The position numbers and the translations under genes were made by a program. The notes beneath the pieces are model-generated. The model did not search any database. It had not been told where the DNA came from and was given only the letters and a program-made list of their open reading frames with translations. Shown here piece after piece: positions 1,276-47,466 of a stretch of 64,000 nt of DNA. The stretch is taken from the IMG/VR virus record IMGVR_UViG_2585427757_000006. One strand, written 5' to 3'. This DNA is from a virus (taxonomy: Duplodnaviria; Heunggongvirae; Uroviricota; Caudoviricetes). How positions within the stretch are numbered: position 1 is the stretch's first letter; every line of letters starts with the position of its first letter.

Positions 1276-4994
<3,719 letters not shown>

Positions 4995-5008: not shown

Positions 5009-6172
5009 TTAATCAAAATTCTTCTGTTTCATTGCCTCAGCCGCTTTTTGCAGCGGTCCTTTCAAGGCTTTTTCTAACTTTGTCATCTGCTCTAAGTGCC
5101 ACGCAACCGCTTGGGGCCACGTCTCTTTATTAAACCCATCAGCTTTGGTCGAAAACTGAATACGGCAAGATTTCTTCTCATCCAGCCTCATCCACTCAAG
5201 TTCTGCACCAAAAGCATGTTCAATGTCCTGTTTGGACTGACTCAACAAGTCAAAAAGGTATTTATTCTCTTCGGTAACCCCACGGCTGATCCAAAGCTCT
5301 ACTCGAAGCTCTTTTTGCAGAAATATCAGGTTATACGGACACCCACTTAACCCTGAGCCTGCTGATAACCAGTGATCTTTGCTTGGGCTAATGTTGTTAT
5401 AGAGTTGGCAAACGCTTTTCTGAAACGCCTCTAAGGCACGCTCCCAGTACTCGCGACGCACCGTATGGCGGTTTTTAAGGACCACTTCGGTGGTTTTTTC
5501 TTCCGCTTCCTTGGCATTAATGCCGATCATCAACTCTTTCGCTTCTGGCGTTGGAATGATCTGGTCAATATTAATCAGTAGCTGTTCACCCAGTGAATAA
5601 GGCGTGATTTTGAAGCAGGCAATGCTAATGCCTTGACCCAATAACCACAGCGCGGTGCTGGTCACTTCTTTGCGAAAGTTTGCCGCAACTAGCATAATAC
5701 GCTGGCTGTTACCCAGGTTGAGCTTTAACTCATCCAGATCGGGCGCATCCAAAAATTCACATATTCTCGCCGAAGCACTTGCAGGGGCATTTAACAGGTC
5801 AACCTCTGCTGTTACAGGCTCATAGCGATCTAAGTACTGCTGGTAAATGTCAACTATTTGTGCTTTGGTTAAACTGGCACAGTAAGAGGCATATTTAAGG
5901 GCCTGCCACACCACATCTCGGCCACTGTCGTCCAGCTTATTTTCAATAATGACCAAGTTGCCATCTTTATCCAGTGCCAGTAAATCTAATCGTTCACGGG
6001 TGTCATCAAAGCCATCGAACTCTTTTTGAATAATCAACAACTCTTCACCCAATGCGGAAGGTTCGTGTGCCAACCACTCCTGAAGATGCTTGCGCTCAGT
6101 AAAGCCCAACTCACTGAACTTCTTTGTCCTAACAGGACTAATCCTGTTAGTTTGATGATTTACCGTGAACAT
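5009..6172 (-). CDS. uncharacterised 387-aa protein embedded in the hsd operon; N-terminal PD-(D/E)xK-like nuclease motif
   Basis: Tightly packed between hsdS stop (6182) and hsdR start (4994); motif RLDLLALDKDGNLVIIENKLD resembles a D..E-x-K nuclease core; no Walker A. Confidence 0.5.
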   Translation of the reverse strand: MFTVNHQTNRISPVRTKKFSELGFTERKHLQEWLAHEPSALGEELLIIQKEFDGFDDTRERLDLLALDKDGNLVIIENKLDDSGRDVVWQALKYASYCASLTKAQIVDIYQQYLDRYEPVTAEVDLLNAPASASARICEFLDAPDLDELKLNLGNSQRIMLVAANFRKEVTSTALWLLGQGISIACFKITPYSLGEQLLINIDQIIPTPEAKELMIGINAKEAEEKTTEVVLKNRHTVRREYWERALEAFQKSVCQLYNNISPSKDHWLSAGSGLSGCPYNLIFLQKELRVELWISRGVTEENKYLFDLLSQSKQDIEHAFGAELEWMRLDEKKSCRIQFSTKADGFNKETWPQAVAWHLEQMTKLEKALKGPLQKAAEAMKQKNFD

Positions 6173-38204: not shown

Positions 38205-38564
38205 TCAACCTTTCTTCATCAACTCTCGTTTAATTTCATCGGTACGCATCGTGACATCGGCAGCTGTGATTGCCTCGTTAAGTTTCACGATGTCCTCGAT
38301 TTCCTGCGGTGACTTCTCTGCCAGATGGAAAATGGCTGCGCGAATCACGTCAGAACGGGTGAATTTCTCGAAGCGAGGGATGAACTTCATCATCTCCAGC
38401 AGTTCGAAGTATTCGTCCTCCAGTGACATTGTGCGGCTTTTAATTTTCTCTTTGCCACGAGTCGGGCGTCCCTGTGGTCTGACTGGTTGGCGCAAAGGAG
38501 TTGTGTTCTTAGCCGGTGCATCAGGCTCTTTGCGCTTTGCTAGGTCACCCATTTTCATGGACAT
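38205..38564 (-). CDS. ParG-like small partition protein (putative ribbon-helix-helix centromere binder)
   Basis: 119 aa, basic N-terminal tail; start overlaps the ParA stop. Confidence 0.5.
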   Translation of the reverse strand: MSMKMGDLAKRKEPDAPAKNTTPLRQPVRPQGRPTRGKEKIKSRTMSLEDEYFELLEMMKFIPRFEKFTRSDVIRAAIFHLAEKSPQEIEDIVKLNEAITAADVTMRTDEIKRELMKKG

Positions 38565-39232: not shown

Positions 39233-39550
39233 TGGAGAGTTCCCTTTGCGTATATAATTATCGTCTGAAACAACTTGTTTTCTTATATGTGATATAGCCT
39301 AAATGCCTACGGCTGCGGTGTAAAGGTTAAATGGTAGGTTGTGATTAACAATTGGCAAACATAGCTTGTATTTGTCTGTTGAAAAAAGTAACAATGACCT
39401 CTATATTACAAGTACGGTGATATGCCGTACACAATTTGATAATGCACACGTAATGGGCTATAGCCTTTTAAAGTAATTTTTGAGTCGAAAACTCAGTTTG
39501 AACAGAGGAGATTGATGGCCTTCCTACATCACGGCCATCAGGAGGAATAC

Positions 39551-39820
39551 ATGTCAGCACTAAAAAAGCAGCGCATCGATTTGAGATTAACCGATGACGA
39601 TAAAAGCATCATCGAGGAAGCTGCCGCAATGTCTAACCAGAGCATTACTCAGTTTATGGTTAGCAGTGCATCTGAACGTGCCGTGAAAGTTATAGAGCAA
39701 CACCGTAGACTAGTTCTGAATGAAGAATCCTGGAATCTGGTTATGGACGCTATAAGCAATCCTCCGGCACCGAACGACAAGCTGAAACGAGCTGCTGATC
39801 GTCTGAAAAGCATGGAGTAG
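39551..39820 (+). CDS. TacA-like (DUF1778) ribbon-helix-helix antitoxin
   Basis: AGGAGG Shine-Dalgarno before the ATG at 39551; C-terminal NPPAPNDKL as in DUF1778 antitoxins; immediately upstream of a GNAT gene. Confidence 0.7.
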   Translation: MSALKKQRIDLRLTDDDKSIIEEAAAMSNQSITQFMVSSASERAVKVIEQHRRLVLNEESWNLVMDAISNPPAPNDKLKRAADRLKSME

Positions 39821-39827
39821 TTTACTC

Positions 39828-40349
39828 GTGGATAATATAAAGATAGAAATTTTCTCTGGAGAGAAAGATTATGATTTGAATGGTTTTGATTGCGGTGAAG
39901 AATCACTAAATGCCTTTTTAACCAACCACTTAAAAAGGCAGCATGAGGGAAAAATTCTTCGCGCTTATGTGCTTTGCACGAAAGAAGGCAGACCAAAAGT
40001 GTTAGGGTATTACACTTTGTCAGGTAGCTGCTTTGAAAAGGAGTCCTTACCTTCAAGAAGCCAGCAAAAGAAGGTACCTTATCGGAATGTTCCAAGTGTT
40101 ACTTTGGGTAGGCTGGCTTTGGACAAGTCCCTTCAAGGTCAAGGATTTGGCTCAATGCTTGTAACACATGCAATGCGCGTTGTGTACAATGCATCTCTTG
40201 CTGTAGGCATTCATGGACTTTTCGTTGAGGCGTTAAATGACAAAGCCAAGGCGTTTTATAAAAGTTTAGACTTTATCCAGCTGGTTGGTAACAACGAGCG
40301 TTCTTTGTTCTATCCTACAAAATCTATCGAAAAATTGTTCGAAGAATAA
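39828..40349 (+). CDS. GNAT-family acetyltransferase toxin (TacT/AtaT-like)
   Basis: Acetyl-CoA binding motif GRLALDKSLQGQGFGSMLV; 173 aa; GTG start 8 nt after antitoxin stop. Confidence 0.75.
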   Translation: MDNIKIEIFSGEKDYDLNGFDCGEESLNAFLTNHLKRQHEGKILRAYVLCTKEGRPKVLGYYTLSGSCFEKESLPSRSQQKKVPYRNVPSVTLGRLALDKSLQGQGFGSMLVTHAMRVVYNASLAVGIHGLFVEALNDKAKAFYKSLDFIQLVGNNERSLFYPTKSIEKLFEE

Positions 40350-40380
40350 TGTACTCCCCTCAAGTGAGGGGAACTTCGCA

Positions 40381-40596
40381 TCACCAACCGCAAACTCTCT
40401 CTCCCATCGTATTGTGAAAAAGGATTTGGCGTTCGGTTTCTTCGGTCATCACATCATTATTGCTGATATAGATAGGCCCAGCTCCATCGCAGAACAATAC
40501 GCTGGCGGTTTGTGGTTTAATGACGCACCCACTTATCATACAACTCACGATGAACGGCAGAAGCATCTTTCTGACGTATTTTATTGCTCGTCTCAT
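40381..40596 (-). CDS. outer-membrane spanin lipoprotein (Rz1-like), overlapping the i-spanin gene in another frame
   Basis: Lipobox MISGC; ~80 bp overlap with the i-spanin ORF. Confidence 0.5.
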   Translation of the reverse strand: MRRAIKYVRKMLLPFIVSCMISGCVIKPQTASVLFCDGAGPIYISNNDVMTEETERQILFHNTMGERVCGW

Positions 40597-40768
40597 TCAC
40601 CACTTCCACTGTGCTTTGAAGTCGTTTTCTGTCTTCCTGTTTTGCCTTCTCTTCCATTGCTCGTCGCGCCGCATTCCCGCCCATCGTGTAAGCGCCGACA
40701 AGAACGAAAAGAACGGCAGCCAGCGTAATCAAAGCAACTTTTAGCTTTGTCATCAGGCTGCCTAGCAT
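40517..40768 (-). CDS. inner-membrane spanin (Rz-like)
   Basis: N-terminal TM helix ALITLAAVLFVLVGAY then charged coiled-coil region. Confidence 0.55.
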   Translation of the reverse strand: MLGSLMTKLKVALITLAAVLFVLVGAYTMGGNAARRAMEEKAKQEDRKRLQSTVEVVNETSNKIRQKDASAVHRELYDKWVRH

Positions 40769-40769
40769 A

Positions 40770-41489
40770 TTAGACCATCCCTTTCTGGTGTTTTCTTACC
40801 TGCGACCAGGCAATGAATCCGGCCACAACAATAGTGGCAATACCGAAGATGATGCGTACTGTATCCCCGCTAGAGATATGACCTTGTGCTTTATCCATAG
40901 CAGCGGAAACCTGCGGCATAACATCGGCCAGCTGCGCCAGACCAATACCTGCTGTAACAGTTGCGCCTGCGGTTTCTTTAGTTACAGGAACAGCCTTCAC
41001 GGTTTTCACCGGCTTAACAACGCCAGCTCGACGCAGACCTTCCTCAATAACTTCTGCCGCATACCAGGTGTTCAGCGTTTTTAGCGGACCTCGCCCATTC
41101 TCATGGCGAATGATTGCCTCAACCAAAGGTCGAAGAATGTCGTAATCATGCAGATCGATAATCATGTCTGCGGTTACACCAACGGCTTTAGACACCTCAT
41201 TAATGTAGGCGTCAGTATTGTTTTCATTCGGCGGTGCCCAACGTTCAATAACTTCACGAATGGTATCGATACTTGAGCCGTCTTTTGCGCGACGTTTGTC
41301 GTGGTAGGTAATTAGAGTCACCGCCAGCGCACGAATCCCCCAAACAGGGTCTTTAAACGTGCAAAAGCGCGGTTCGTCTGGATTCGCAACCAGACCTTGC
41401 CACGGTGATCCTTTATCAAGATTACCGGGGTTATTATTACGAATGCCTCTCGGAGTCTTCATCCTTGATCTCCTGTTATTGCAGTCCAC
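40770..41489 (-). CDS. putative endolysin / peptidoglycan hydrolase with a C-terminal hydrophobic segment
   Basis: Directly upstream of the spanin pair; N-terminal GIRNNNPGNL motif; C-terminal IIFGIATIVVAGFIAW. Confidence 0.4.
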   Translation of the reverse strand: MDCNNRRSRMKTPRGIRNNNPGNLDKGSPWQGLVANPDEPRFCTFKDPVWGIRALAVTLITYHDKRRAKDGSSIDTIREVIERWAPPNENNTDAYINEVSKAVGVTADMIIDLHDYDILRPLVEAIIRHENGRGPLKTLNTWYAAEVIEEGLRRAGVVKPVKTVKAVPVTKETAGATVTAGIGLAQLADVMPQVSAAMDKAQGHISSGDTVRIIFGIATIVVAGFIAWSQVRKHQKGMV

Positions 41490-41811
41490 TTTTTACGCCA
41501 TACGCGGCTAACCCCAAAAGCAGTGCGGTAATAATGAACGACGTTATTTTAGAAACAATGCCGCCAAAGAACCCACTTGAGATGGAATCTAACCGGTTAA
41601 GGAGTTTGTCCAGATTGGAGTGTTGAATACTATGTTGCGCCGGGGTCATATCACCAAAGTAGGTTTTCAGCTGATCATTGACCTCCTGGCCAATTTCTTC
41701 ACGTAGCTCTTTACCTAATTTGCCAACAACCTCCCGAGCAACGATCGCGGCAATACGCTCAACTTGCTCTGTTGTAACGCCCGCCATCTCGTTCGACATG
41801 TTTTCCTCCAT
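41476..41811 (-). CDS. putative holin or lysis-associated membrane protein (single C-terminal TM)
   Basis: First gene of the lysis cluster; C-terminal FFGGIVSKITSFIITALLLGLAAYGV. Confidence 0.3.
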   Translation of the reverse strand: MEENMSNEMAGVTTEQVERIAAIVAREVVGKLGKELREEIGQEVNDQLKTYFGDMTPAQHSIQHSNLDKLLNRLDSISSGFFGGIVSKITSFIITALLLGLAAYGVKSGLQ

Positions 41812-41880: not shown

Positions 41881-42114
41881 TCATTCAGCATTGCAACCGA
41901 TTGATGAGAAAGCACCTACTCCAACCCATCGCCAGTTATAGATGCTACCCGCTTTGTATAAGGTATAGTCGTTCACTTTTTTAACAGCATATATGGGTAT
42001 GACTGTCTCCTGTCCACCAATGATAGCTTCACCATAACATATAGGTGTCGGCAATTTCTGGCAGCCAGTAAGAGAGAGAACAACAGCTATTGTTAGAAAT
42101 AATCTTTTCATCAT
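41881..42114 (-). CDS. small lipoprotein downstream of the tail-fibre genes (possible Llp/Cor-like exclusion lipoprotein)
   Basis: Signal peptide with lipobox LTGC; 77 aa. Confidence 0.45.
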   Translation of the reverse strand: MMKRLFLTIAVVLSLTGCQKLPTPICYGEAIIGGQETVIPIYAVKKVNDYTLYKAGSIYNWRWVGVGAFSSIGCNAE

Positions 42115-42121
42115 TTACTCA

Positions 42122-42730
42122 TCAGTTATACAGATTTCTATTTATTACCGGTACTCTGCCATTTACGCTAAAACTATGGCCGCCATTAAGTTGGTTTACG
42201 AATATCGAGCTAACAGTATTTCCATATGCCGCATATCCATAAACCATTGTCATGGCTCCGCCCGGTACTGGAACAGCGAACACATTCGCATATGTTGGGA
42301 TTATCGCTGGAGGGTAATCAAAAACATGCCCTCCAGAGCTGTTCCACTCCGTATTATTAAGAAAGGTAAATGAAAGTGGGATATTTGCCGTATTATAGAT
42401 TTCCCCCCCTTGTGCATTGAAAAAACTCATGCCCCAAGTTTCTTTTTTGGCTATACCTTTCGAAAATACGTATATCGTGGCACTAGAGTCGCTACCCTGA
42501 CCTCCGAAACTGTAAATCACCTGGTTGTTACGCACTATTCTGTTGGCTATTAATGAAACAGCTTTCGAATAGGCAACAAAAATAATCGGTGAACGATCTG
42601 GAGATATTTTGGTGTTAAACTCTGTCCCGCCGGACAAAGAAACAACCTGCTTTCTCTGAAAAACGATAGGAGACAAAGAAGGAGACATCCAGACCTTCCC
42701 GTCAGATCGATATATCTTGCTTCCGTACAT
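42122..42730 (-). CDS. tail-fibre-associated protein (202 aa)
   Basis: ORF track; follows the tail-fibre gene; Gly/Ser/Asn-rich. Confidence 0.4.
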   Translation of the reverse strand: MYGSKIYRSDGKVWMSPSLSPIVFQRKQVVSLSGGTEFNTKISPDRSPIIFVAYSKAVSLIANRIVRNNQVIYSFGGQGSDSSATIYVFSKGIAKKETWGMSFFNAQGGEIYNTANIPLSFTFLNNTEWNSSGGHVFDYPPAIIPTYANVFAVPVPGGAMTMVYGYAAYGNTVSSIFVNQLNGGHSFSVNGRVPVINRNLYN

Positions 42731-43044: not shown

Positions 43045-46000
43045 TTATTCTTTAGGTGAATTTAACTTCGTTTCAAGCTCCTCAACCCTTTTGGTCAATT
43101 GCTGAATATGATGAATGAGTGGTACAACCAAACGCTCATACATCACTCCTTCAGCGACCATACCATTTGAGGAAATATCTTCTGGAGAATCATTATTTGT
43201 TGGTTCACGCCAATGGACATATTGCGGGGCAATCTCACCAACCTCTTCAGCAATAAGGCCGTAATACCCCCAATCCTTTCGGTCACCTCGACAAATTGAA
43301 CGATACCAAACAGGTCTTAATGACAAAAGTTCATCAGCATATCGATCTTGTAATGTTTCAATATCCTTTTTATAGCGCCTTGAAGACGTTGAACGCCAAA
43401 CTGTATTGATACCTGGGTTTGGATCAATGTACATATTGGCACCGCTAGTAGTTGTGCCAATATCCCATATAGCAAACCCTCCACTACCGCCTGATTTGAC
43501 AACCAGTGTTTCAGCAACAATATCCAGGTTGCCACTATAGCCTGTCAGTGATGATCTGCTTGCATAGGAGCTTAGAAGGTTTGCTACCTCTGTTTTCGTG
43601 TAAGCATTAAGGTTAGCCGCAGTCAAAGTTATATCGGCAGAGCCATCAAACGCCACACCAGCAATTTTCCTTGCTGTCTGCAATTTTGTGGCGGTTGCGG
43701 CATTACCAGTAGTGTTCTGATTACCAGTTGTATTCACACCAGGGATTGAATCCTTAGCGGTATATACCTGCGCCCACGCTGACCATGCTGCACCTGTGTT
43801 ATCTCTTCGTGAGCGAATGAAAACTGGCGCATGTGCACCGCTCGTACCACTCCAGCCAATAAGCAACTCGCCCTCACCAGCAGCACTCGCACCTTTCATG
43901 TGCAATACGTTGCCATACGTGGTCGGGTAGCTATTGTTGTACGCCTCATACATTTGAATGCCAGCAGTGCCTTGAGTAGAGCCGCTTAACGCCGTAACTC
44001 GGCCACGAGATACCAATGTATTAATGTTGATATCGCCTGAACCATCAAACTTAACACCATTGATGTTTCTCGCTGTTTGCAACTTCGTAGCTGTTGAAGC
44101 ATTACCGTTCAAACTACCATTTACGCCACCAGTCACATTTAGTCCATTACCAATTGATACAGCACCGCTGGTATTATTAATTGTAATCGGTCGCAAACCG
44201 TTCCATGAACCTAATGTGTCTCCTGATGCTGTTAGCAGGAAATATGTGTTCGCCCCATCATTACGGATAAAGAACCCATAGTTACCGTAAGCAATGCGGA
44301 AACCATTTGCATATTTTGAAACGATCTCACCAGAAGACGTTACCCCCCCAGATAATGTGCCACCTGAAAGCGGTAATGCTCCTACATCAGAAGCTGTTGG
44401 TTTGTTTCTGGTGTTATAAGAACGACGCCAGCCTGGCGCATAATCACTTCCATTGTACACATAAATAAATTCCGCATTATTAACACCACCATGACCCGAT
44501 GTTGTTGTCGTTGTAACACGAATAGTGTAATGGCTTGTTGCCTTATTACTAAACACCTCAATCACGGAACCAGATAGATCGATCCTACCGCAACCAGTGT
44601 CGTCTATATAATTATTGTTGGCGTAAGCCCATGAGCACCGTGCAATCCAATATTTGTTTGAAAATGCACCCTGATTATTTAGCCACGTTATAAACTGAGC
44701 AGTCGTAAATGCTGTTCCGTTACCACTATTTAACCATCCGGCGGCAGCGGTTGGTGCGTTTATATCAGCCGGCTGAGGCATAAATCCAGTCGTGTAAACC
44801 TGCTCCCAACCACTTTCAAAACCATAGCCATCTCTTGAGGAACGGTAGAACAGACCACCATTTTTATAGTGAGCTTTAATTTGAAGCGTACGGCAACTAC
44901 CTACACCGGTATAAAAGTTGGCAAGAATATAACTAGCGCCTGCTCTAGTTACATTGTAAGCACCAGATTCAGCATTCCACGGCACGCCACCATCAGCATC
45001 CGCATATGTATCCGTTGCCCTTCTGGCAAAAGCAGCCACATGCGCGGCGGTTAAAGTGATATCTTTGGAACCATCAAACTCAACACCAGAAACCCGTCTT
45101 GGCGTTTGCAGCTTTGTTGCTGTTAATGCATTACCGTTCAGACTTGCGGACAGTTTGGTTCCAATAACCAGTTCGCCGGTTGCGTTATCAATAGCAAACG
45201 GTCTTAATGTATTCCAGCCACCATAAACATCACCTTGATTGGTAAGCAGCAGGTAAGTTTTAGCGCCATCATTACGCCATAATGCCCCATACTCCCCACC
45301 TATCATTCGAATCTGATTACCACCACGCGCTACAATTTCGTCTGTGGCAAAAAGTTTTTTGCACGACAAGTTATCGTTAACGATTAACGAATGAGACTCA
45401 TAAAAACCACGCCCACTCTTAAAATCAAGGATAACGTCCGCCGCGATACATTCAATCGCCGGATTTGTTGCCCCAAACTTATAGGTCGTATCATTAACAA
45501 CGAGATCCGCACCAGGTGCGGATATTGACAGGCCATCTTCAATAAACGCAAAAACAGGGAAAGCAGCACCATCAACATAGAACACAGAGCGCAAATCATC
45601 GCCCTTATTACTCATCATTATTGAGTGGATGGCTCGTTCATTGTTTTGATATTGCCAGAACATTCCATAAGCATAACGCCCCCTGTCAGTCCAGCCACCA
45701 GGCATAACAAATCCGTTAAACTCGCAGTTATTCATCGGATCGCCTGCGGTTCGCGTTGCCGTGGTGATAATGACCCTTGATGCCAGTTCGCTTACTGAGC
45801 CAGCAGAACGCATAACAACAACAGGGTAATATTTTCCAGATGTTGCACCTGCAGGAGCGTTAACCCGCACATAACGCATACCACGCTTATCAGCAAAGTC
45901 TGTTTTACTGACCGCGTTAATGTTGTTCAGGAAGCGTCCCTTATCGGGTATATCAGCGCCGTTCTGGTCTTTCTGCAGACGTTTCTCTGCATTGTCATAG

Positions 46001-47466
46001 GCTGATTTTACTGCCTTTGGCGTTGCCGCCAGCGTCTCAGACGTACTGTTGGTCGCACTGCTGAGCTGTACTATCCCCTTTTTCGTCGTACTTGCATCCT
46101 CAAGCGCCACGGCGGATGCAATATCCTCTGCCCGTTTTGCCGCTGTCTCGGCGCGCGTTGCCGCGGATTCCGCCGTACTTTTGCTCTGTGCTGCCGCCGT
46201 CGCACTGCCAGCTGCCTCTGTCGCCTTCGTGGATGCTGTCGTGGCGCTGCCCTTCGCTGCGGACGCTTGTCTGGTCGCCTCATCTTTTGAAGCAGACGCC
46301 GATGATGCCGATGACGCTGCCGAACTGGCGGACGATGCGGCTGCCGTTTTTGAGGATTCTGCACGGGTTTCCGACGCTTTCGCGTTCGTTTCGGATGTCT
46401 TCGCTGCGGAAGCAGACCTCGCTGCTGCGCTGGCCTGTTCAGTGGCTTCGCCAGCCTTCGTTGTGGCTGTTGAAGCAGACGATGCGGCACTTTCTGCCGA
46501 TTTTCCGGCGGCGGTGGCACTGGCTGAGGCCTGCCCGGCACTTGTTGACGCGGCACTTGCAGACGACGCAGCCGCTGTTTTTGAGCCTGCCGCAGCCGAG
46601 GCGCTCTGTCCCGCTGCCGTTTCAGAAGACCTGGCGTTCGTCTCGGACGTTTTTGCCGCCTTCGCGGAATTTCCTGCCGCCGTTGCCGAGGAAGCGGCAT
46701 TACTGGCGCTCGAGGCTGCGTTCGTTTCTGATGATTTCGCTGCCTCTTTTGAGGCCGCCGCATCCCGGGCTGAGGTGGCAGCTTCTGACGCCTTCGTGGT
46801 CGCGGTGGATGCAGAAGTGGCTGCAGATTTTTGTGACGCTGCAGCATTCGTTTCAGATTTTTTCGCAGCAGTTGCACTCGCACTTGCGGCACTTTGTGAG
46901 GATGCCGCAGCGGATGCACTTTGAGACGCTTGAGAGGCTTTTTCTCCAGCGGCATTGGCGCTTTTTGCTGCTGCGGCAGCACTGGCCGCCGCCTCACGAG
47001 CTTTGTCGCCAGCAGCATCAATCGCGTCAGTGTTATTTTTATACCACTCAACGTTTTCGTTGTGCTCGTTGACGATCTGCATTAGCGGCTTAACGGTCAC
47101 TTCTGTACCGTCTTCACGCTCGATTGTCACCTCATCCAGCGCAGTCAACCAACTGCGTATGGACTTGGAATCAGCCGACATACGCGACATTAGCGCAGTA
47201 AAACGCGCGCTAAACTGTGTTAAGTCGCCTTCATAGGTCGTAATGATTCGGCACGGAACCTCAGACTGAGTTTCGCCGGTATAAGGTTCTGAGAGAACAA
47301 TATTCGTATCGCTTATTACGCGCTTGATCTCATACAGCTTATTGTCGGGGCCAATGACGATCATCCCCGGCAACACACCATTAGCTGTTACGTTCCAGGC
47401 TGTCCCTGCCCCAACCAGAGTATTGCTACCATGTGTAAATGTGATAGTACCTTCCCTGTACCACAT
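43045..47466 (-). CDS. long tail fibre protein (1473 aa) with Ala/Ser-rich repeat region, three tail-fibre repeat units and a C-terminal self-cleaving chaperone (peptidase S74-like) domain
   Basis: ~320-aa low-complexity SETNA-type repeats; three ...TATKLQT.R...GV.FDGS.DI... units; C-terminal SSRRYKKDI and YYGLIAEEVGEIAPQYV. Confidence 0.85.
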   Translation of the reverse strand: MWYREGTITFTHGSNTLVGAGTAWNVTANGVLPGMIVIGPDNKLYEIKRVISDTNIVLSEPYTGETQSEVPCRIITTYEGDLTQFSARFTALMSRMSADSKSIRSWLTALDEVTIEREDGTEVTVKPLMQIVNEHNENVEWYKNNTDAIDAAGDKAREAAASAAAAAKSANAAGEKASQASQSASAAASSQSAASASATAAKKSETNAAASQKSAATSASTATTKASEAATSARDAAASKEAAKSSETNAASSASNAASSATAAGNSAKAAKTSETNARSSETAAGQSASAAAGSKTAAASSASAASTSAGQASASATAAGKSAESAASSASTATTKAGEATEQASAAARSASAAKTSETNAKASETRAESSKTAAASSASSAASSASSASASKDEATRQASAAKGSATTASTKATEAAGSATAAAQSKSTAESAATRAETAAKRAEDIASAVALEDASTTKKGIVQLSSATNSTSETLAATPKAVKSAYDNAEKRLQKDQNGADIPDKGRFLNNINAVSKTDFADKRGMRYVRVNAPAGATSGKYYPVVVMRSAGSVSELASRVIITTATRTAGDPMNNCEFNGFVMPGGWTDRGRYAYGMFWQYQNNERAIHSIMMSNKGDDLRSVFYVDGAAFPVFAFIEDGLSISAPGADLVVNDTTYKFGATNPAIECIAADVILDFKSGRGFYESHSLIVNDNLSCKKLFATDEIVARGGNQIRMIGGEYGALWRNDGAKTYLLLTNQGDVYGGWNTLRPFAIDNATGELVIGTKLSASLNGNALTATKLQTPRRVSGVEFDGSKDITLTAAHVAAFARRATDTYADADGGVPWNAESGAYNVTRAGASYILANFYTGVGSCRTLQIKAHYKNGGLFYRSSRDGYGFESGWEQVYTTGFMPQPADINAPTAAAGWLNSGNGTAFTTAQFITWLNNQGAFSNKYWIARCSWAYANNNYIDDTGCGRIDLSGSVIEVFSNKATSHYTIRVTTTTTSGHGGVNNAEFIYVYNGSDYAPGWRRSYNTRNKPTASDVGALPLSGGTLSGGVTSSGEIVSKYANGFRIAYGNYGFFIRNDGANTYFLLTASGDTLGSWNGLRPITINNTSGAVSIGNGLNVTGGVNGSLNGNASTATKLQTARNINGVKFDGSGDININTLVSRGRVTALSGSTQGTAGIQMYEAYNNSYPTTYGNVLHMKGASAAGEGELLIGWSGTSGAHAPVFIRSRRDNTGAAWSAWAQVYTAKDSIPGVNTTGNQNTTGNAATATKLQTARKIAGVAFDGSADITLTAANLNAYTKTEVANLLSSYASRSSLTGYSGNLDIVAETLVVKSGGSGGFAIWDIGTTTSGANMYIDPNPGINTVWRSTSSRRYKKDIETLQDRYADELLSLRPVWYRSICRGDRKDWGYYGLIAEEVGEIAPQYVHWREPTNNDSPEDISSNGMVAEGVMYERLVVPLIHHIQQLTKRVEELETKLNSPKE

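Follow-up and report, generated by a model that had tools for sequence, protein, structure and literature searches.

A probable lysis cassette in an SSU5-like phage-plasmid, with an Enc34/M4Lys-type endolysin and a predicted tail-anchored partner protein

In the Siskin genome note (2019), chi-like endolysins with C-terminal transmembrane domains (TMDs) were flagged as a potential new class. M4Lys of Salmonella phage BSPM4 was later found to degrade peptidoglycan when its TMD is removed, with N-acetylglucosaminidase activity, while the full-length protein lyses Escherichia coli on its own and is not blocked by sodium azide; deletion of the last 13 amino acids (aa) abolishes lysis, and the TMD alone is bacteriostatic (Bai et al. 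2020, PMC7143992). The gene upstream of M4Lys, ORF_37, was non-toxic and slightly delayed lysis on co-expression (PMC7143992). The structure of the endolysin domain of Hafnia phage Enc34 ORF39 has been solved and the domain is active, with Glu131, Tyr95 and Trp79 acting in catalysis or in positioning the substrate (Cernooka et al. 2022, PMC8943055). Full-length proteins of the Enc34/M4Lys class are toxic or lytic without a holin or Sec (PMC7143992, PMC8943055), there is no known mechanism for exporting an N-terminal domain via a C-terminal signal, and the C-terminal-TMD architecture has been described as apparently confined to Chivirus and close relatives (Cernooka et al. 2022, PMC8943055). 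A GH24 endolysin with a C-terminal TMD has also been described in Acidovorax phage AP1. Here we describe four genes at nt 40381–41811 (minus strand) of IMG/VR record IMGVR_UViG_2585427757_000006, a 64-kb stretch of DNA (below, the window) that is part of an SSU5-like phage-plasmid of E. coli. The original prediction for this locus was of a lysis cassette in which both the endolysin and the protein encoded before it depart from canonical topologies. For the endolysin the non-canonical topology is real but represents an already known class, the range of which the SSU5 lineage extends to phage-plasmids. The new part is the family of the protein in the holin slot, which is predicted to be tail-anchored and which adjoins several unrelated endolysin types.

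The assignment of the window to the SSU5-like elements follows from DNA comparison, in which the region was 99.9% identical to E. coli plasmids of about 110 kb, 98% identical to Escherichia phage Cyrano and 82% identical to Salmonella phage SSU5. The four tightly packed open reading frames (ORFs) that had been reported on the minus strand were recovered, with maximal lengths of 111, 239, 83 and 71 aa. These lengths stand for the maximal ORFs, but the first two proteins are likely to be 107 and 230 aa long. An ATG at nt 41799 with GGAGG 5 nt upstream starts the 107-aa protein, and an ATG at nt 41462 with AGGAG upstream starts the 230-aa protein, the 239-aa form requiring a GTG at nt 41489. These internal starts, each with a Shine-Dalgarno sequence, agree with the annotations of Cyrano and SSU5 and with the N-termini of homologues. 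The in-frame ATG at nt 41811 (MEENM..., 111 aa) was considered as part of a lambda-like dual start and rejected, as it has no ribosome-binding site (RBS) and is not conserved in the family.

Three of the four proteins match lysis-annotated PHROG families (phrog_873, phrog_1026 and phrog_1275; E values from 6e-89 to 2e-24), and the fourth falls in phrog_5093 (2e-68). The cassette is retained at the DNA level in 408 plasmid records, from Escherichia, Enterobacter, Salmonella, Citrobacter and other genera, and in 6 phage records, and, given this retention and the PHROG matches, chance does not explain the arrangement. Public phage records annotate the cassette already, the genes being labelled Holin, Endolysin, Rz spanin and Rz1 spanin in the GenBank entry of Cyrano, and putative holin, endolysin and Rz-like spanins in that of SSU5, which bears out the reading of the locus as a lysis cassette. 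In RefSeq plasmid records the same four genes are labelled hypothetical, which fits with there being no Pfam and NCBIfam models for them. The identity of the cassette and of its endolysin class can be taken as secure, and the locus as a whole is very probably a late-operon lysis cassette with three functional parts, namely an endolysin, a small membrane protein and a spanin pair.

By its sequence the 230-aa protein is best assigned to the peptidoglycan hydrolases. A phmmer search against the Protein Data Bank matched residues 10–160 of the 239-aa ORF to the Enc34 endolysin domain (7Q47_A, E = 1.5e-54), its PHROG match is the endolysin family phrog_873 (6e-89), and the catalytic domain belongs to the PHA02564 family, with a fold like the lysozyme alpha-lobe. 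W75 (in ERW), Y86 and E121 (in RHENG) align to Trp79, Tyr95 and Glu131 of Enc34, and all three are conserved. The proposal that the protein with the motif GIRNNNPGNL, which it does carry, is the endolysin is thus upheld, the more so as no other endolysin is annotated in the ~100 kb examined of the 103-kb SSU5 genome; a protein lacking a hydrolase fold, with a canonical endolysin elsewhere, would have been the contrary result. The similarity extends beyond the catalytic domain. Identity to Chi gp38 is 55% over residues 2–228, membrane module included, and the protein can accordingly be classed, on alignment, as a full-length member of the Enc34/M4Lys/Chi gp38 group.

The N-terminus of the endolysin (MKTPRGIRNNNPGN) is polar and no window in the first 160 residues exceeds a mean Kyte-Doolittle (KD) hydropathy of 1.1, so that hydropathy gives neither an N-terminal signal-anchor-release (SAR) domain nor a cleavable signal peptide. 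The strongest window of the 239-aa ORF, IIFGIATIVVAGFIAWSQV (mean KD 2.07), lies close to the C-terminus. In these respects the earlier description was accurate, but it recognised one C-terminal segment where there are two helices. The first is weakly hydrophobic (mean KD 1.0), with Gly, Ala, Ser and Thr making up 52% of its residues; a conserved ISSGD loop follows, and then the second helix, which forms a strong TMD ahead of a basic tail. The module keeps the motif ISSGD-x-V-R/K-I-x-FG ... W ... R/K-K, and the C-terminal 80 residues have 23 invariant columns when aligned with Chi gp38 and with the endolysin of L094, a locus from a metagenomic relative. In the latter (nt 5368–6063 of L094) the Enc34-type endolysin has an intact membrane module and has lost all three active-site residues (W to F, ERW becoming LDF; Y to T; and the E of RHENG to Y, in VMYNG). 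The gene is still located between a phrog_5093 gene and an i-spanin gene, and its product may lack catalytic activity or rely on other residues.

An origin of the C-terminal module by fusion of a stand-alone small membrane protein was considered, and no supporting evidence was found. A profile search with the module gave only short proteins, and P0092 and P0094, which have apparently genuine starts, lie at contig ends and represent truncated endolysins. No match was obtained by phmmer between the endolysin and the small TMD proteins of other phrog_5093 cassettes. A common origin of the endolysin and 107-aa TMDs, suggested by a shared 'ISSG', was likewise rejected (hhalign probability 37% over 28 columns, not significant).

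The 83-aa and 71-aa proteins represent an overlapped two-component spanin of the Rz/Rz1-like kind, belonging to the Chi family, as expected from the earlier description of overlapping Rz/Rz1-like genes. The inner-membrane protein (i-spanin, 83 aa) has an N-terminal TMD and matches phrog_1026, Rz-like spanin (9e-25); the corresponding Chi protein, gp39, has 84 aa. The outer-membrane lipoprotein (o-spanin, 71 aa) has a signal peptide and a lipobox (ISG-C24), matches phrog_1275 (2e-24) and is 51% identical to Chi gp40. The two genes overlap by 80 nt in different reading frames. SSU5 has previously been listed under the Chi spanin family by Kongari et al. (PMC6139136).

The 107-aa protein is the least familiar member of the cassette. 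It is 95–99% identical to the 'holin' of Cyrano and SSU5, but it has no match in Pfam (E <= 0.1) or NCBIfam, and phrog_5093, into which 34 of 34 members tested also fall, is annotated as function unknown. The 'holin' label rests solely on gene position. Hydropathy agrees with the proposed layout of a protein that is hydrophilic except for a C-terminal helix: the best 19-residue window of the 111-aa ORF is at residues 85–103 (mean KD 2.0), the maximum in the first half being 0.56, and the sole hydrophobic stretch is followed by a tail of only five residues (Table 1). With one TMD and a gene next to that of the endolysin, the protein has the basic features of the holin class.

Close relatives were found in 12 of 50,697 phage records, all SSU5-like elements, and broad scans for related loci returned almost only such elements. 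A profile search of 1.84 billion representative proteins gave 53 clusters of 94–144 aa with the same layout. Across 34 aligned members (23–90% mutual identity) a single TMD lies 5–14 residues from the C-terminus, the net charge of the N-terminal domain averages -3.2 (-4 in the 107-aa protein), and the tail after the TMD averages 9.4 residues with a net charge of +1. The family signature is FG(D)M.P..H..QH.R.D..L...D, within which G49, H56 and H60 are invariant. In SSU5-like members the TMD is the most conserved part, and small residues are abundant in it. An AlphaFold2 model made with the 34-sequence alignment (mean predicted local distance difference test score, pLDDT, 78; with a shallow alignment of the 107-aa protein, 45) has two long helices, at residues 10–48 and 53–103, the second of which passes unbroken into the TMD. 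A Foldseek search of the model against BFVD gave no structural match (best E = 3.2).

A TMD this near the C-terminus cannot engage the co-translational insertion machinery. Given this extreme position, and by analogy with bacterial tail-anchored proteins, the orientation of the 107-aa protein is most likely N-in, with a very short predicted periplasmic tail of about 5 residues. Literature searches for a tail-anchored or C-terminal-TMD holin found nothing relevant.

The gene surroundings of distant phrog_5093 members were compared, over about ten loci. Four arrangements were seen. In the first (A), represented by the window, the SSU5-like elements, L109 and L094, the family member is followed by an Enc34-type endolysin with a C-terminal TMD, with no further small membrane protein before the spanins. 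In the second (B; L086 and L108) a 3-TMD protein comes next, then an endolysin with a hydrophobic N-terminus, then the spanins; the two proteins are phrog_8226 'holin' and a phrog_669 endolysin in L086, and homologues of both in L108. The third (C; L088, L090, L092 and L093, with L089 truncated) has a soluble Peptidase_M15_3 endolysin, a small protein with 1–2 TMDs, and i-spanin-like proteins, and the fourth (D; L087) a soluble GH108/PG_binding_3 endolysin followed by a 58-aa single-TMD protein. The gene that directly follows phrog_5093 thus encodes a Peptidase_M15_3, GH108 or Enc34-type endolysin or, where the endolysin is of phrog_669, the phrog_8226 'holin', with the endolysin gene coming next. 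The accompanying small membrane proteins include 3-TMD forms at nt 1417–1740 of L086 and nt 3822–4127 of L108, and 2-TMD forms at nt 5906–6241 of L088 and nt 1422–1712 of L090; the 2-TMD family has a conserved C-terminal motif, V.STI..L...F..GY..D..LNKD, and no Pfam or PHROG assignment.

The conserved adjacency to endolysins that are not homologous to each other provides strong evidence that phrog_5093 is a lysis protein family. The same adjacency shows that it is not a specific partner of TMD-bearing endolysins. A second regularity concerns the companion proteins. Where the endolysin has no C-terminal TMD, a separate small membrane protein is present in every cassette that extends past the endolysin gene, whereas cassettes with a TMD-bearing endolysin have none.

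A sequence of events at lysis can be proposed from these data and from the published homologues. The endolysin is a probable Enc34/M4Lys-type glycosidase made up of a catalytic domain, a linker and a C-terminal membrane module, and by homology with M4Lys and Enc34 it would accumulate on the inner membrane, where the module, in place of Sec or an N-terminal signal, would let it reach the cell wall. The 107-aa protein would be tail-anchored in the inner membrane, its acidic, helical domain of about 75 aa facing the cytoplasm, and would act as a membrane-level timing component of lysis. The spanin pair, related to that of phage Chi, would then disrupt the outer membrane.

Several points weigh against this scheme. 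The 107-aa protein matches no described holin family. It lacks the charged C-terminal cytoplasmic tail of typical holins, and the charges flanking its TMD do not decide its orientation. Because another small membrane protein co-occurs with it in the other types of cassette, phrog_5093 may not be the holin at all. The route of the catalytic domain across the membrane is unexplained even in the homologues that have been studied (PMC8943055), and literature searches for experiments on an SSU5-type cassette gave nothing relevant.

How the 107-aa protein might time lysis can be read in two ways. According to the first, which we consider to have close to an even chance of being correct, the cassette has no separate holin. 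The C-terminal module of the endolysin would itself be holin-like or self-exporting, as in M4Lys, and the 107-aa protein would be a regulator acting on the endolysin TMD and its basic cytoplasmic tail, as a brake in the manner of an antiholin or as a helper in that of a releasin; elsewhere, the separate small protein would be the holin-like element. The behaviour of M4Lys agrees with this, as it lyses without its neighbour gene or Sec, has a bacteriostatic TMD, and is slightly delayed by the neighbour. The layout of the module, in which a weak helix rich in Gly/Ala/Thr precedes a strong TMD with its basic tail, seems to resemble that of a class II holin or pinholin. Separate small TMD proteins are found only where the endolysin lacks a C-terminal TMD, and the 107-aa protein, with its acidic domain and no charged C-terminal tail, is without typical holin features. 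On the other hand, the module has no detectable similarity to the small TMD proteins of other cassettes and its hhalign probability against the phrog_5093 TMD is the 37% given above, no stand-alone copies of it were found, and the co-occurrence pattern comes from about ten loci.

A precedent for such a helper is found in phage Mu, where gp25 (DUF2730; 99 aa, anionic, with two histidines) is needed due to basic residues beside the TMD of the SAR endolysin gp22. On predicted topology the SSU5-type pair may be comparable: as in Mu, a membrane-tethered protein of about 100 aa would consist mostly of an anionic cytoplasmic domain with almost no periplasmic part, and the endolysin beside it would be anchored in the membrane, with basic residues (RKHQK in the present case) at the cytoplasmic side of the anchor. 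Relatives of Mu gp25, like phrog_5093, also occur with soluble endolysins. The differences are that both proteins would have the mirror-image topology of their Mu counterparts, and that the 107-aa gene lies upstream of the endolysin gene, while that of Mu lies downstream. There is also no sequence relation to DUF2730 (no Pfam match at E <= 0.1), and the TMD of the 107-aa protein is C-terminal, unlike that of releasins, which is N-terminal with an N-out, C-in orientation.

The second reading, that the 107-aa protein is a hole-forming holin with a new, tail-anchored single-TMD topology, is distinctly possible though short of probable. Its conserved TMD would oligomerise and trigger, and the tethered endolysin would be released or let through, with the endolysin module serving as an anchor only and the separate small proteins elsewhere acting as antiholins or accessory factors. 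The gene occupies the canonical slot directly upstream of the endolysin gene, both here and beside M15, GH108 and Enc34-type enzymes. Soluble M15 and GH108 endolysins require a holin. Further support is provided by the conservation of the TMD and its many small residues in the SSU5-like proteins, by the annotation in Cyrano and SSU5, and by the window itself, in which no other small ORF with at least two TMDs was found, although the window is only part of the element. Against a hole-forming role are the missing family match, the five-residue tail, which is not of the charged cytoplasmic type, and the acidic N-terminal domain. In addition, the other small TMD protein is always present where the endolysin lacks a TMD (in L086 it is the phrog_8226 'holin', and L108 has a homologue of this), and the positional counterparts in Chi-like and AP1 cassettes are non-toxic when expressed alone. 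The probability not taken up by these two readings falls to other roles for the 107-aa protein.

That the 230-aa protein is instead a virion-associated cell-wall hydrolase used at infection, as the PHA02564 label 'virion protein' and the presence of this type of catalytic domain in tape-measure, ejection and internal virion proteins of many phages (phrog_7182, phrog_2276, PDB 9vvp Gp29 and many T7-like internal virion proteins) might suggest, is very improbable for a stand-alone protein encoded between the holin-slot gene and the spanins, with full-length homology, TMD included, to M4Lys and Chi gp38, which lyse from within, and with no rival endolysin annotated in the part of SSU5 examined.

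Comparison with described cassettes places the SSU5 type nearest to that of the Chi-like phages. The Enc34, M4Lys, Chi gp38 and Siskin endolysins share with it the catalytic domain, the Trp/Tyr/Glu residues, the linker, the two-helix module and the basic tail, and in the Enc34/Chi type the endolysin gene likewise has the gene for a small membrane protein on one side and overlapped spanin genes on the other. Three of the four genes are held in common with Chi-like phages, which are virulent siphoviruses of about 60 kb, compared to the phage-plasmid of about 110 kb described here. The exception is the holin-slot gene. In Chi gp37 (112 aa) the TMD is close to the N-terminus and a hydrophilic domain of about 68 aa comes after it, the reverse of the layout of the 107-aa protein, and neither blastp nor hhalign detected similarity between them; a relationship by descent or circular permutation was rejected (hhalign probability 0.5%).

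In AP1, the endolysin LysAP ('C-terminal SAR') also has a C-terminal TMD, which is required for lysis, and is paired with a single-TMD protein of about 110 aa, HolAP, that is non-toxic alone. LysAP has, however, a GH24 lysozyme domain, and HolAP belongs to Phage_holin_2_3 with an N-proximal TMD, and there is no sequence relation to the proteins of the window. Other single-TMD holins (class III, T4 T; class IV, as proposed for Siskin) are similarly small lysis-cassette membrane proteins, but T4 T has a large periplasmic C-terminal domain, and proteins of the Siskin/Chi type, in which the TMD is N-proximal, are predicted to be N-out, C-in. The 107-aa protein, with its TMD 5 residues from the C-terminus, has a tail-anchor layout, for which no published holin was found in literature searches.

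The features of the cassette are collected in Table 1. The stop codon of the 107-aa gene is separated from the endolysin ATG by 13 nt, and the endolysin stop from the i-spanin ATG by 1 nt, a spacing typical of a translationally coupled cassette. The hairpin that may end the operon has a 9-pair stem followed by a T-rich tail; it was detected by a consensus scan and is weak, 1.8 such sites being expected by chance in the region.

Table 1. Coordinates (nt of the window) of features of the lysis cassette and of the presumed operon end
Feature	Position	Strand	Evidence
107-aa predicted tail-anchored membrane protein (phrog_5093)	41476..41799	-	ORF, RBS, phrog_5093 2e-68
phrog_5093 signature, F48-G-D-M-T-P-A-Q-H56-S-I-Q-H60	41620..41658	-	alignment of 34 members
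Sole hydrophobic segment of 107-aa protein, F77-V102, then KSGLQ	41494..41571	-	hydropathy
230-aa probable Enc34/M4Lys-type endolysin	40770..41462	-	7Q47, phrog_873 and Chi gp38 matches
Endolysin catalytic domain, aa 1-150, with W75, Y86, E121	41013..41462	-	alignment with 7Q47 and Chi gp38
Endolysin C-terminal helix 1, aa 165-189	40896..40970	-	composition, hydropathy; kept in Chi gp38 and L094
Endolysin C-terminal helix 2 (strong TMD), aa 202-222	40797..40859	-	hydropathy, conserved motif
Endolysin basic tail, RKHQKGMV	40773-40796	-	follows helix 2
i-spanin, 83 aa	40517..40768	-	phrog_1026 9e-25, hydropathy
o-spanin lipoprotein, 71 aa	40381..40596	-	phrog_1275 2e-24, lipobox
Terminator-like hairpin, possible end of late operon	40353..40374	-	consensus scan

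Upstream of the cassette are genes for a Cor-like superinfection-exclusion lipoprotein (77 aa, phrog_1119) and a phrog_425 'membrane associated protein' (202 aa), at nt 41881–42730 (minus strand), which are placed between the tail fibre genes and the lysis genes in an order identical to that in SSU5. Beyond them, a tail fibre protein of 1473 aa (nt 43045–47466, minus strand) carries low-complexity Ala/Ser/Thr-rich repeats at about aa 150–460 and is annotated in Cyrano as homologous to the S tail fibre of P1. Downstream, and convergent to the cassette, is a two-gene toxin-antitoxin module (nt 39512–40349, plus strand) comprising a 102-aa antitoxin-like ORF and a 173-aa GNAT acetyltransferase, labelled in Cyrano 'putative antitoxin' and 'KacT acetyltransferase-type toxin'; SSU5 carries two unrelated hypothetical genes, SSU5_031 and SSU5_032, at this place. 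The module is followed by parA, and directly 3' of parA, with overlapping stop and start codons, is a 119-aa ORF (nt 38205–38564, minus strand) that is labelled 'RelE/ParE putative toxin' in Cyrano. Judged by its position and its basic N-terminus, the product may rather be a small partition adaptor of the ParG/ParB kind. Elsewhere in the SSU5 genome, distant from the lysis cassette, SSU5_101 (NC_018843.1, nt 86898–87596) is annotated as a 'lysozyme inhibitor LprI family protein'.

As the cassette was already annotated and the endolysin class already published, the gain in knowledge is incremental unless phrog_5093 turns out to represent holins, or regulators of holins, of a new kind. We tentatively propose, as something that falls well short of being established, that phrog_5093 is a previously unrecognised class of lysis protein, tail-anchored, with a cytoplasmic helical hairpin that carries the invariant G...H...H, which times lysis for at least four unrelated endolysin types. 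If this is true, both early actors of SSU5-type lysis would be inserted post-translationally by their C-termini, and a comparison of the SSU5 and Chi partners could provide an experimental handle on the recognised puzzle of how C-terminally anchored endolysins reach the cell wall. Chi-like phages combine a homologous endolysin module with a partner that is unrelated and has the opposite layout, and so offer a natural comparison in which the contributions of module and partner can be told apart; the phrog_5093 partner family is found with soluble endolysins as well. Phage-plasmids of the SSU5 type are common in E. coli, Klebsiella, Salmonella and Enterobacter, and since they often carry resistance genes, the way in which they lyse their hosts matters for their spread.

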